Shown here: piece after piece, positions 49,064 to 52,712 of the stretch | Position numbering within the stretch: the stretch's first letter is position 1 | Layout of the letters: each line of letters begins with the position of its first letter | From: an uncultured Deinococcales bacterium | GTDB taxonomy: Bacteria > Deinococcota > Deinococci > Deinococcales > JAAFIG01 | NCBI GenBank assembly: GCA_964247135.1 | Contig: CAXTTL010000004.1 | Coordinates: 2,146-66,145 of the forward strand | DNA length: 64,000 bases | Direction of reading: 5' to 3' | Notes under the pieces: model-generated | The model's input: the letters and a program-made list of their open reading frames with translations, nothing else | The model's database searches: none | What the model was told of the DNA's origin: nothing | Program-made: the position numbers and the translations under genes

Positions 49064-49138
<75 letters not shown>

Positions 49139-49143
49139 TTTCA

Positions 49144-49178
49144 GGGACGCAAATCTTCAGGTTTGCGTCCCCGTTTTT
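49144..49178 (+). terminator. intrinsic terminator after tRNA-Val
   Basis: GGGACGCAAAT..GTTTGCGTCCC then GTTTTT. Confidence 0.8.
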
Positions 49179-49313
49179 CATTCGAGTATCATCAAGCGTT
49201 CCAAAGTTTTTGCGCGAGTAATGACATAGACGTGAATTATAAAATTATCGAAATTATTCAGTAAAACGTAACCTCGTGATAAACTTCGTGTTGTGGGTAA
49301 AGCCCATGTGCTA

Positions 49314-49454
49314 CTGGGGAAGATCACAAATTAAATTCCACTGTCTATCAGCGGTGGCACACGTGTAGTTAGTTCAGATCTCGAGGTATCCGCTTTACCT
49401 ATTATTTGTAGCTTTAAGCGGTATGTTTAAAAGAGAAATATTGATCTTCCCCAG
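49314..49454 (+). ncRNA. putative retron msr-msd ncRNA
   Basis: Perfect 13-bp inverted repeat CTGGGGAAGATCA (49314-49326)/TGATCTTCCCCAG (49442-49454) enclosing hairpins at 49338-49357 and 49390-49421, directly upstream of a retron RT. Confidence 0.75.
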
Positions 49455-49460
49455 AAAAGC

Positions 49461-51089
49461 ATGAAAGAAAAATTTCTCAAAATCTACGATCATAACGACT
49501 TGTCTAATTTTTTTGGCATGAGCTACAAAGAACTTTCTGCAATTATTTATCCATATAATGAAGCCAGAAAGTATCATAGCTTCTCAATTCAAAAACGAAA
49601 CGGTGGTATTCGGACTATAAAAGAACCTAAGAAAAAACTGAAAGATATTCAGTTTCTTTTGAAAAATGTTTTGTCGGAGATTTACGTTGCAAAAACGCCT
49701 GTACATGGTTTTTGTTATGGTAAAAGTATTGTCACAAACGCAAAAATGCACCTAAATAAAAAATTCATTTTGAATATTGATCTAAGTGACTTTTTTGGAA
49801 CAATTTATTTTGGGCGCGTAAAACGACTTTTCATGGCAAAACCGTTTGGATTTATGGAAAATGTTGCCACCATTCTTGCTCATATATGCTGCTTTGAGAA
49901 TAGCCTGCCACAAGGAGCACCTACATCACCAATCATCTCAAACATGATCGCTTTCAAAATGGATGCCCAACTGCGAGATTTGGCAATGCAGTGCCAAGCA
50001 ACCTACACACGATATGCAGATGACATAACTTTCTCGTTTACCTGTTCTAAAAGACGTTTACCTCCGAAAATTGTGGCTATTGATCAAGGAATCATTAGAT
50101 TGGGCGAAGTGCTTGAGAAAATTATTCGTGACAATGGTTTTAAGATAAACTTAGAAAAATTAAGATTAGCTGGAATAACTCAAAGATTAGAAGTAACTGG
50201 GATTACAGTTAATAAGTTCACAAATATGCCACGGAAATACGTGCAGCAAATCAAATCTATGTTATACGCATGGGAAAGATTTGAATATGAAGCTGCCGAA
50301 AAAGAATATTTAGAAAAGTATAAAATCACAAAGCGAATATACGAAAGTGAAGAGCCATTTAAGTATGTTGTTAGAGGTAAAATCGCTTTTTTAAAAAGTG
50401 TGCTTGGTGAATCAAGTCGCATTTTTAATGAACTGGCATTACGATTTAATAAGCTTGTCGAAGAAGAGTTTCTAAAATTTTATATTCCTAATAATTTTAA
50501 ACCAAGAGTCGATGTAATATCCTCACTTTGGATTATTGAAACTGAAAATTTTCAAGGAACTGGATTTGATTTAGATGGTTTTGGAGTTATTACTTGCGCA
50601 CATGTAATTGGGGATTTAAAAGACAAAAATATAATTTATGAGAATATTGAAGCTTACAAAATTACCGACCCAACGAAAATATACAAAGTAACAGTTATCC
50701 AGCACGACATCAACCTTGATCTTGCCACCTGCACGCTTCAAACTGATTCAGGAGGCTCTGCTCCACATACCCCAATGCGAATTTCTGAAATAGAACCTTA
50801 CCCCTTTCAAGAGGTAATTCTTTATGGTTTTCCCAATTATGCCCCTGGGAAAAAGCTATTCCAGGCTGATTTTAAAATAACTTCCACTAATCAAACAAAA
50901 TCTAATTTTAATTTTCAACGATTTGAGGTGGATAAGACGATACGTGCTGGTAATAGTGGAGGACCTTTAATTGATGTTCACGGCGATGTTATTGGAATCG
51001 CTGTTGAGGGTCAAGAAGGACTTTCAGGACAGAATGCGGCTGTGTATGCTAGCGAGTTAGTTAAAGTGTTCAGATCAAATTCGGAATAA
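49461..51089 (+). CDS. retron reverse transcriptase fused to a C-terminal trypsin-like serine protease
   Basis: RT: KRNGGIRTI, NAKMH (NAxxH), IDLSDFF, LPQGAPTSP, YTRYADD, VTG. Protease: GTGF, TCAHV, DLA, GNSGGP. Confidence 0.92.
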   Translation: MKEKFLKIYDHNDLSNFFGMSYKELSAIIYPYNEARKYHSFSIQKRNGGIRTIKEPKKKLKDIQFLLKNVLSEIYVAKTPVHGFCYGKSIVTNAKMHLNKKFILNIDLSDFFGTIYFGRVKRLFMAKPFGFMENVATILAHICCFENSLPQGAPTSPIISNMIAFKMDAQLRDLAMQCQATYTRYADDITFSFTCSKRRLPPKIVAIDQGIIRLGEVLEKIIRDNGFKINLEKLRLAGITQRLEVTGITVNKFTNMPRKYVQQIKSMLYAWERFEYEAAEKEYLEKYKITKRIYESEEPFKYVVRGKIAFLKSVLGESSRIFNELALRFNKLVEEEFLKFYIPNNFKPRVDVISSLWIIETENFQGTGFDLDGFGVITCAHVIGDLKDKNIIYENIEAYKITDPTKIYKVTVIQHDINLDLATCTLQTDSGGSAPHTPMRISEIEPYPFQEVILYGFPNYAPGKKLFQADFKITSTNQTKSNFNFQRFEVDKTIRAGNSGGPLIDVHGDVIGIAVEGQEGLSGQNAAVYASELVKVFRSNSE

Positions 51090-51181
51090 TTTGACACATT
51101 CGCTTTAGTGTAGAGCAACATCCCAAATGTTAAAAATCCGACTCATATTGTACACATGAAATGAGAATGTTATCTGAGCAA

Positions 51182-51346
51182 TCAATTGGCTGGATAATTT
51201 GGCTTTTTGGGCAATTTATTATCTTCAATTTTGCAAGTTGTTACGCGCCCTTGCGACTCACCTTTTGCAATCACAAGGGCTTGATTGGCACTCTCGAGCA
51301 GCATCTTTTCAAGTTTCGGTTTCATCAACTTTTTCTTGGGCATCAT
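51182..51346 (-). CDS. small hypothetical protein, possible antitoxin-like remnant
   Basis: SD AGGAGG, MMPKKKLMKPKLEKMLLESANQALVIAKGE; no HTH seen. Confidence 0.4.
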   Translation of the reverse strand: MMPKKKLMKPKLEKMLLESANQALVIAKGESQGRVTTCKIEDNKLPKKPNYPAN

Positions 51347-51401
51347 GCACCTCCTGACTATTTTACATCCCAAACTTTAACCACCGTTTTCGCCGCCGTA
51401 T

Positions 51402-52712
51402 TCAACGCATCCTCGGAATCTCGAGTACCCCCCTCAATCCGCCCTCTTCAGCTCGAGACAATTCCAACCGTCCATTGTGGCTTTCCATCACGGCATTCAC
51501 CAGCGTTAACCCCAAGCCCGAACCTGGCAGGTGTTGCACCGCCAAACCGCGTTGAAAGGGTTGCCGTAGCCGCTCGAGTTCGAGGGTTGGAATGCCAAGA
51601 CCATCATCTGAAACCTCGAGCCAAGCCTGAAGCTGCGTCGCCCCCGTCCGAATCCAGACGTGACCGCCCTCGCGTCCGTATTTGATGGCATTCTCGAGCA
51701 GGTTGCTGATGGCAAGCCGCAAACCCGAAGGGTCGCCGTGAAGTGCGGCAGGCTCGAGCGTGGATTCGATGCTGATGTGGTGCGCTTGGGCTTTAGGCTC
51801 GAGGAGTTGAATGGCGTCAAACGCCAGTTCGGACAGGTCGAGGGCTTGATGGTTCGCGGCTTGGTCAGCTCTCGCCAGGGTCAGCAGTGAATCCACGGTG
51901 GCGGTCATCTGACGGGCAATCTCATCCGCCTCGAGCAGCGCGGCACGGTAGGTGTCATCGTTGCGGGTTCGCTCGAGGGTCAGGCTGGTGCGTCCAATCA
52001 AGGCTGCCAGTGGCGTGCGGAGTTCGTGCGCTGCGCCCAGCGTGAAGGCTCGTTCGCGTTCGATGGTGTACTCGAGCCGCTCGAGCATGGCGTTGACGGT
52101 GCGGGTCAGGTGTGCCATTTCGTCGTTGCCTGGGGCATTAGGCACGCGATCCGCGTAATGTCCAGACGCCGCAATCTGCGCCGCGAGGGTACTAACCTGA
52201 TCGACGGGACGCAAGGCGCGATCTGCCAGCACATAACCTGCCGCAAAACCGATCAGCAGCAACACGGGCAGCACCACCAACACCACTTGCCCCGCTCGAG
52301 CGATGGTTTTTGCCAACTCGAGTTGTGAACGGGCGGCTTGAATAAAAATATTGCCTGGCAAGGCTTTGGTGAACGTGCGAATCTCAGCGACGGTTTGAAA
52401 TCCTGGCTCGAGTTTGACTTGAACTTTAAAATCGCCAAAACGGTCTAAGAGTTGCCCGTGTTGATCGAAGACCGCCAGCGAGGTCGCCCCCGCTTGACTC
52501 GGTTGGAAACGCTGTCCTTCAGTCTCGAGGCGCGGGTTGCTCTCCTGCCCTCCGAGTTGACTGATGGCAAGATCGGCGGCTTCGCGGAGGGCATCGTCGA
52601 AAGATTGGTACAGGCTTTGGCGCAGCGCAACGAACAAGACCGCCGTGCCGAGCGCCAAGATCAATGCCGAAATCAGCGCGTAAAACAGCGTCAGTTTCAA
52701 ACGCAAACTCAA
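51402..52712 (-). CDS. sensor histidine kinase
   Basis: Two TMs, HAMP, AAHELRTP, NLLENAIKY, DDGLG, GSGLGL. Confidence 0.93.
   Translation of the reverse strand: MSLRLKLTLFYALISALILALGTAVLFVALRQSLYQSFDDALREAADLAISQLGGQESNPRLETEGQRFQPSQAGATSLAVFDQHGQLLDRFGDFKVQVKLEPGFQTVAEIRTFTKALPGNIFIQAARSQLELAKTIARAGQVVLVVLPVLLLIGFAAGYVLADRALRPVDQVSTLAAQIAASGHYADRVPNAPGNDEMAHLTRTVNAMLERLEYTIERERAFTLGAAHELRTPLAALIGRTSLTLERTRNDDTYRAALLEADEIARQMTATVDSLLTLARADQAANHQALDLSELAFDAIQLLEPKAQAHHISIESTLEPAALHGDPSGLRLAISNLLENAIKYGREGGHVWIRTGATQLQAWLEVSDDGLGIPTLELERLRQPFQRGLAVQHLPGSGLGLTLVNAVMESHNGRLELSRAEEGGLRGVLEIPRMR

Follow-up and report, generated by a model that had tools for sequence, protein, structure and literature searches.

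An adenosine in place of the priming guanosine in the RNA of a type XI retron with a fused serine protease

The stretch of DNA considered here (the window, 64,000 nt) comes from an uncultured Deinococcales bacterium and covers positions 2,146-66,145 of contig CAXTTL010000004.1; all coordinates given below are those of the window. At 49314-51089 it carries a retron composed of a structured non-coding RNA (ncRNA) and one gene, in which a reverse transcriptase (RT) is joined to a serine protease of the trypsin-like kind. Its protein places the element among the type XI retrons, a class already known. Its RNA has no branching guanosine of the canonical kind but keeps every other feature of the Eco2-like retron RNAs. 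An adenosine stands in the place of the priming guanosine, and the RNA likely primes in a manner that we have not found described in the literature searched. The reading that we prefer, with a probability of roughly 55%, is that adenosine-primed multicopy single-stranded DNA (msDNA) keeps the fused protease off until a phage attacks that DNA; the priming, the caging of the protease and the role in defence are all steps that we infer. The initial annotation of this locus, made from the letters alone, had recognised the retron and its fused protease, and made no mention of the absence of guanosine at the priming position.

The RNA lies directly ahead of the gene on the same (+) strand. As first annotated, a perfect 13-bp inverted repeat (49314-49326 and 49442-49454) encloses two hairpins; the repeat can be extended to 22 nt at 82%, and the fold of the region has an energy of -52.4 kcal/mol with z = -4.65, a stability attained by none of 200 shuffled sequences. 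The 5′ arm of the a1/a2 stem (49314-49332) consists of the perfect 13 bp at 49314-49326 and a predicted inner 3 bp, 49330-49332 pairing with 49437-49439, whose register was taken from covariation in 16 relatives. Next comes the msr hairpin (49338-49357) with an ATC-containing loop, which resembles the single stem-loop of Eco2 RNA and is the predicted RT-recognition element; the contacts of the RT with the Eco2 loop are described in PMC12405507. The predicted reverse-transcription stop site (49365-49369) includes G49368, the equivalent of Eco2 G52 and an invariant G in the alignment of the lineage. The msd (49368-49435) holds a long hairpin and is the predicted template of a 68-nt reverse-transcribed DNA (RT-DNA), copied from 49435 back to 49368. 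The last segment (49436-49454) is made up of the opposing A49436 and the 3′ arm of a1/a2, the perfect part of which is 49442-49454, and it ends 7 nt ahead of the start codon. In having an adjacent ncRNA that is closed by a1/a2 repeats and contains msr and msd hairpins, the element agrees with canonical retrons; it has no branching guanosine at the inner end of a1/a2.

The same RNA recurs among relatives. Perfect inverted repeats of at least 10 bp lie upstream of 37 of the 67 RT-protease loci that have sufficient flanking sequence, a set that includes the window (shuffles, 6/201), and of 49 of 87 related non-protease loci (shuffles, 8/261). Sixteen loci of the lineage of the window align with conserved 5′ and 3′ motifs. 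When the msr hairpin is taken together with the innermost four pairs of a1/a2, the paired cells amount to 91.7%, against 76.3% in shuffles (0/500) and 38-56% in slid controls, the structure tested being derived from the same related sequences, which favours a high pairing result. Compensatory changes are found in six of these nine pairs; for the msr hairpin alone 93.8% of cells are paired and four of five pairs have changed on both sides. RNAalifold, run on the sequence alignment, recovered the msr hairpin only, because the outer stem shifts register. As an outside test, a covariance model built from the 16 loci (R1) matched a relative unseen in its making, L318, at 63.5 bits, and there too A faces A; in the genome of the window it marks one place (150 of 367 candidates scored). 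The model is narrow, since beyond its training set only L318 matched strongly, with L125 and L009 at E-values of 0.32 and 0.66. Rfam has nothing above threshold but a tRNA (67.4 bits). Given the fold z-score, the covarying stems and the recurrence of the inverted repeat, the upstream RNA is real.

The branch-equivalent base was located by measurement against a reference, locus L196, whose protein carries the Eco2 residues of PMC12405507 at their published numbers. The measuring rule places G15, a loop at 30-32, a stop G at 52 and a 67-nt template in the RNA of L196; applied to the window, it gives A49333 facing A49436, the stop G at 49368 and a template of 68 nt. A49333 (+ strand), the equivalent of the branching G15 of Eco2, is thus the predicted priming nucleotide, with A49334 as an alternative. 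It lies 19 nt ahead of the C that closes the hairpin loop, a distance of 19-21 nt in Eco2-type loci. Of the 17 loci of the lineage, 16 have the stop G at +16 or +17 counted from the loop and one has it at +18 (+17 in Eco2). At the branch-equivalent position 16 of the 17 loci have A and one has C, all of them facing A.

Canonical priming from some other guanosine, either G49322 in the long stem or G49343 closing the hairpin, would mean that this register is wrong. The inner stem of the window is imperfect, and in several relatives (L002, L097, L237) the stem does contain a G that lies further outward by 3-5 nt. However, that outer G is not conserved, being absent from L161, L163 and the window, and where present it often pairs with C; G49322 sits within the perfect 13-bp stem; and in none of the 17 loci of the lineage does a G occur between -2 and +6 relative to the branch-equivalent base. 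We regard priming from another guanosine as very unlikely.

How the base varies over the wider group was followed by rule-based scans, one of which recovered Eco2 G15 and gave A/A for the window. A stricter scan of 134 distinct loci returned, for the branch-equivalent base and the base facing it, G·G 60, A·A 28, T·G 13, T·C 7, T·T 6 and A·G 5, with C·A 5, G·A 4, A·C 3, C·C 2 and G·T 1 as the rarer pairs, and its rows are not all reliable, for it mis-registered the window itself as T/T. For a tree of RTs the G·G and A·A loci were taken, with L108, L113, L024 and L175 dropped as mis-registered by eye, the fragment L237 left out, and the window, L318, L161, L089 and L266 added from the lineage measurement. 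On this tree (58 G·G and 30 A·A loci, 88 tips) the pair changes in 10 parsimony steps, against a mean of 25 and a minimum of 19 in 500 shuffles. The deep branches are weakly supported, but the sisters L100 (A·A) and L101 (G·G) are joined with support of 1.0. Repeated, concerted change of both facing bases, as it appears from these sequences, fits a functioning site better than a decayed one. An adenosine is the branch nucleotide of group II introns and of the spliceosome.

Closely related retrons that differ at the branch-equivalent base are found in several places: L088 and L095 (T/G), L100 and L101 (A/G), and L006, L010 and L105 (C/A/G). A branch of clade 8 that we take for TIR (type XII) retrons (L030, L032, L033, L050, L116, L150, L173-L175) has a pyrimidine at this position followed by A, and in most of its members a G lies 2-3 nt further on; these retrons may use the shifted G or the A. 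The RNA of L243, from another genome of the phylum (G311), is of the Eco2 type, with G facing G.

The same defence system might operate with no branch specific to the 2′-OH of an adenosine. The RT of this part of clade 8 could be indifferent to the base at the end of the stem, or it could start from a free 3′-OH left by RNA processing and make unbranched DNA as is reported for Retron-Sen1. Retron-Sen1 (Se72; reviewed in PMC6868368) provides a precedent of a retron RNA with no apparent priming guanosine, and its DNA shows no 2′-5′ link; unlike the element in the window, it is of type V, in clade 3 according to the census table, its product is double-stranded and it has no fused effector. Pyrimidines at the equivalent position in sister taxa (T in L088 against G in L095; C in L097) also suit such priming. 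Against it, G·G and A·A together make up 88 of the calls and mixed purine pairs only 9, which suggests a constrained site, and the loci with a pyrimidine that were checked by hand have A as the next base. We consider this account unlikely, and prefer a branch at the adenosine.

Besides the mis-registration already mentioned, several observations weigh against adenosine priming. In the minimum-energy fold of the window's own RNA the inner 3 bp of a1/a2 are missing, 49327-49337 stay single-stranded and A49436 takes part in the pairing of the msd hairpin. The probability that a given locus has no G in 9 nt by chance is 0.13, and the 17 loci are related to one another. A pyrimidine occupies the branch position in 37 of the 134 calls of the stricter scan, part of them mis-registered. 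The covariance model has no match to Eco2-type loci, and therefore homology with Eco2 rests on the spacing of motifs and not on a model score. No matching change is found in the protein: the residue that contacts G15, R184 in Eco2, is Q170 here, and Q also occurs in G-type loci, so that covariation of this residue with the branch base, tried as a candidate, was rejected. Substitutions around the priming G of Eco1 reduce msDNA (PMC11754653), and therefore an A at this place could mean little or no product.

The gene is a 542-aa open reading frame (ORF) at 49461-51089 on the + strand, in a single reading frame. Its RT motifs, NAKMH (49737), LPQGAPTSP (49905), YADD (50013) and VTG (50193), are followed by the protease motifs TCAHV (50592), DLA with D420 (50718) and GNSGGP (50949), and all were found where the initial annotation had placed them, expressly or by implication. 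The retron-type RT domain takes up approximately aa 1-335 (49461-50465, +) and is supported by Pfam RVT_1, PADLOC, a Foldseek match to Eco2 and motif conservation. The C-terminal domain with the stop codon (50508-51089, +) is a trypsin-like serine protease of the HtrA/DegS fold (Pfam Trypsin_2, aa 366-513; Foldseek matches to Rv3671c and DegS). Its triad, H381/D420/S499, is complete, as had been suspected. The AlphaFold model has a predicted local distance difference test score of 92.1 and a predicted template modelling score of 0.71; with it, Foldseek returned retron Eco2 first (E-value 8e-27), then other retron RTs, and after these the proteases Rv3671c and DegS.

The homologue search scored 8000 candidates and yielded 3224 proteins, with ~52% identity in the best of them. 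D187, D188, H97, H381 and S499 are present in 84/84 homologues, and D420 in 83/84, in an alignment of 84 of the 120 homologues listed; among the matches listed, both protease motifs occur in 113 of the 115 proteins of at least 480 aa. Conservation of the catalytic residues of both domains argues from sequence that the RT and protease activities are both under selection. Some RT-protease relatives (L040, L058, L085) have the fusion split or interrupted by a stop. RTs of clade 8 also exist without a fused effector, as proteins of 338-369 aa (L001, L003, L004, L009, L011, L013, L087, L099, L111; several of them cyanobacterial), and L001, L003, L004, L009 and L099 have the same RNA architecture.

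PADLOC, a check proposed in the initial annotation, assigns the protein to RT-Protease_XI (models PDLC02959/02960) with 572.9 bits over aa 2-537. Its three top classes are XI, XII and I-C; those after the first reach at most 391 bits on the RT part only, the models of types XII and I-C matching aa 3-342 and no more. No C-terminal TOPRIM or TIR domain was detected in the protein, NCBIfam scores of 308 and 341 being below the cut-offs of 450 and 600. Identity as a group II intron RT (46.6 bits; curated cut-off 300) or as a DRT2 RT (36.8 bits; curated cut-off 390) was rejected. In the trees made here, which did not use the reference tree of Mestre, the RT groups with clade 8 loci.

Clade 8 comprises type XI together with types I-C and XII, and type XI was defined as ‘lacking recognizable ncRNA’ (Mestre 2020; PMC7736814). 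The NAxxH, YxDD and VTG motifs of the RT, its place in clade 8 and the protease fused to it in one ORF are those of type XI as there defined; together with PADLOC, Pfam and the fold match to Eco2, they agree with the type named in the initial annotation. In Toro 2026 (PMC13712802), RNAs are modelled only for protease-less XI-like lineages. What sets the element in the window apart from the type XI of both papers is an RNA that is defined with covariation and has no priming G. In the Khan census of 2024 (PMC10849725) there are five type XI retrons (1122, 1143, 1163, 1165 and 1168), and type XI ncRNAs are called validated. These retrons, like ours, have the ncRNA upstream of an untruncated RT-protease. 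However, the census describes the branch base as ‘most frequently a guanine’ and lists a priming guanine as one criterion for choosing ncRNAs, so that its type XI RNAs, unlike that of the window, were picked with its help; the census made no study of defence. We found no adenosine-primed retron in the titles and abstract openings of the literature, a search that left subscription papers mostly uncovered, and the RT-DNA maps of the census could already include an A-type case.

The closest well-studied relative is Retron-Eco2 (Ec67; type I-C1, RT-TOPRIM; PMC12916289, PMC12405507), another RT-effector fusion of clade 8 and the best structural match. The two RNAs have one msr hairpin each, a similar loop and equal spacing to the stop G, with templates of 67 nt in Eco2 and 68 nt here. 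They differ in that G15 of Eco2 faces G whereas here A faces A, and the proteins differ in the R184 to Q170 exchange and in the effector, an RNase in Eco2 and a protease here. The msDNA of Eco2 builds a trimer and cages the fused nuclease; when phage DenB cuts it, the msDNA is degraded and the effector is released (PMC12916289). The same authors think it plausible that type XI is regulated in this way, and note that, Eco2 apart, the mechanism of no RT-effector fusion is documented (PMC12916289). Our own coverage of titles and abstract openings, with subscription papers mostly uncovered, gave no defence mechanism, phenotype or substrate for type XI.

The mechanism that we propose is modelled on that of Eco2. 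By homology, the RT would bind the hairpin at 49338-49357, and DNA synthesis would start at the 2′-OH of A49333 or A49334. Copying of the template from 49435 to 49368 would give an RT-DNA of ~68 nt, and an msDNA-bridged oligomer would then form and restrain the protease. A phage nuclease or DNA-binding protein that damages or displaces the msDNA would free the protease, which would cut a host protein, and the infected cell would arrest. Since the element has no conserved partner gene as a neighbour, the proposed substrate is a host protein whose gene lies elsewhere.

The order of events could be the reverse of this. Before infection the RT may make hardly any DNA, if any, or it may never make DNA, so that the RNA-bound RT is itself the sensor and it is phage-triggered synthesis of DNA, and not its loss, that activates the protease. 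The RNA has no priming G, type VI retrons are said to depart from constitutive production of msDNA (10.1101/2025.10.22.683967), and other defence proteases are activated by a fused sensor (PMC12799240). On the other hand, the stop motif and the template length are kept as in Eco2, which makes msDNA constitutively, and type XI retron 1163 of the census entered recombineering tests in which the higher producers of RT-DNA had priority, whatever the type of its RNA may be (PMC10849725). Activation by newly made DNA seems to us distinctly unlikely, and release of the protease on loss of msDNA remains the preferred order.

It is highly improbable, too, that the protease is no toxin, serving instead to process the RT or to activate a specific latent effector encoded elsewhere, or that the cassette is a decaying remnant. 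The trypsin-like proteases of other defence systems do activate a dedicated pro-enzyme: in the nuclease-protease and metallo-β-lactamase-protease modules (PMC12799240, 10.1101/2025.11.14.688446) such a protease is fused to a defence sensor, RTs included, much as in the window. Those modules, unlike the element considered here, carry the pro-effector gene as a neighbour. The window has no dedicated neighbouring effector gene, and none is conserved across 77 RT-protease loci, where a neighbour family is shared by four loci at most, two of them near-duplicates; the element therefore works as one gene plus RNA. As to decay, some relatives are broken (L058, L085), but in the window the ORF, both active sites and the RNA stems are intact. 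Four RT-protease loci (L080, L125, L135, L137) share an upstream neighbour that, judged from its N-terminus, we take to be a prokaryotic Argonaute.

The element occupies a variable slot whose flanks are common to all five congeners. On the left is the host gene for tRNA-Val(CAC) (49064-49138, +; ARAGORN, and Rfam with 67.4 bits), which the congeners share, followed by an intrinsic terminator-like hairpin (49144-49171, +); homology to the congeners stops at ~49150-49186. The position after a tRNA terminator was thus correctly read at the outset. On the right, where the cassette ends, is a cut and truncated remnant of a resident helix-turn-helix (HTH) antitoxin gene of the MqsA/HigA kind (51182-51373, - strand). 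One congener, G137, gives an 82% DNA match over 51226-51411 and has there an intact 96-aa HTH ORF, from which the copy in the window diverges after ~30 shared codons and then stops. In G137 the slot is empty, with ~200 bp and the intact antitoxin-like ORF between the tRNA terminator and the right flank. It holds a Panacea-domain gene in G140, and its occupants in G141 are genes for PemK, HTH plus M78 peptidase and PIN; in G139 a PemK gene adjoins the tRNA, and in G138 a ScaI-type restriction enzyme and its methylase lie at the right flank, the two flanks being on separate contigs in both of these. Bounded by tRNA-Val(CAC) on one side and the two-component genes on the other, the slot (49140-51410 in the window; L312-L317) is a hotspot in the genus. 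In G141 the 3′ half of the tRNA is present a second time, ~770 bp downstream.

The retron is a mobile cassette of ~2.05 kb, and the slot that it fills is one where toxin-antitoxin and restriction genes come and go; this context points to defence, and the element is likely anti-phage. A self-encoded integrative element was considered and rejected, as the cassette is flanked neither by a duplicated tRNA 3′ end nor by an integrase gene. In the 364 genomes of the phylum that were covered, a full-length match exists only in the window's own, and an RT-only match in two more. Apart from the window's genome, L242 in G019 and L243 in G311 represent clade 8 retron RTs without protease in the phylum. 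At an E-value of 1e-60 or below there was no match in 133 genomes of one order, and one match, to the RT only, in 277 genomes of one family. Relatives in genome contigs were found by an alignment-based scan, a single-protein scan having given none. A scan of viral contigs with protein P0049 found no match; a scan of such contigs for the hairpin pattern gave 20 loci, 3 with an RT, and the other 17 are treated as chance.

Horizontal acquisition, suggested in the initial annotation, is borne out by the empty and alternative fillings of the slot in the congeners and by the single full-length match in the phylum. Base composition agrees with the claim that the gene is AT-rich (34.9% GC in the ORF, 52.7% in the genome). 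CTCGAG is extremely frequent in this genome (33,925 sites, 6.7 per kb), and therefore its absence marks recently acquired DNA. The claimed absence holds for the ORF, with no site where 10.9 are predicted from the genome rate, but not for the ncRNA, inside which a single site lies at 49380. Nor is the absence independent of low GC, from which it largely follows, because no more than 0.16 such sites would be met in random sequence at 35% GC. Promoter-like sites are fewer than in shuffles (5 against 7.7), and no promoter is claimed. Contigs from four of four public sequencing runs, belonging to two studies, match pieces of the ORF at ~98-100%, and one of them covers 49419-49861 and so links the 3′ arm to the gene, though the coverage of these contigs excludes base 49333; the element is therefore not an assembly artefact.

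Membership of the class is in itself ordinary: type XI is a catalogued type, ncRNAs of some of its members have been published, and the window adds one intact copy. The wider proposal is that a widespread lineage of protease-fused retrons primes from the 2′-OH of an adenosine, that G·G and A·A have been swapped repeatedly in clade 8 and that the DNA gates a stand-alone protease; we advance it tentatively, at a little short of even odds. A single-gene cassette of 2 kb in which the RNA limits are defined, and for which branch base, stop site and length of the product are predicted, makes it directly testable, and sister retrons that differ at the branch-equivalent base offer natural pairs for tests of priming specificity. 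If the reading is true, the stand-alone protease would be an effector chemistry for which no retron mechanism was found in the literature searched. If A can indeed prime, annotation of ncRNAs by their G would miss or misassign a sizeable part of clade 8 (A·A was called in 28 of 134 distinct loci), and the view of priming specificity in retrons, together with the design of RNAs for retron editing, would have to be altered.

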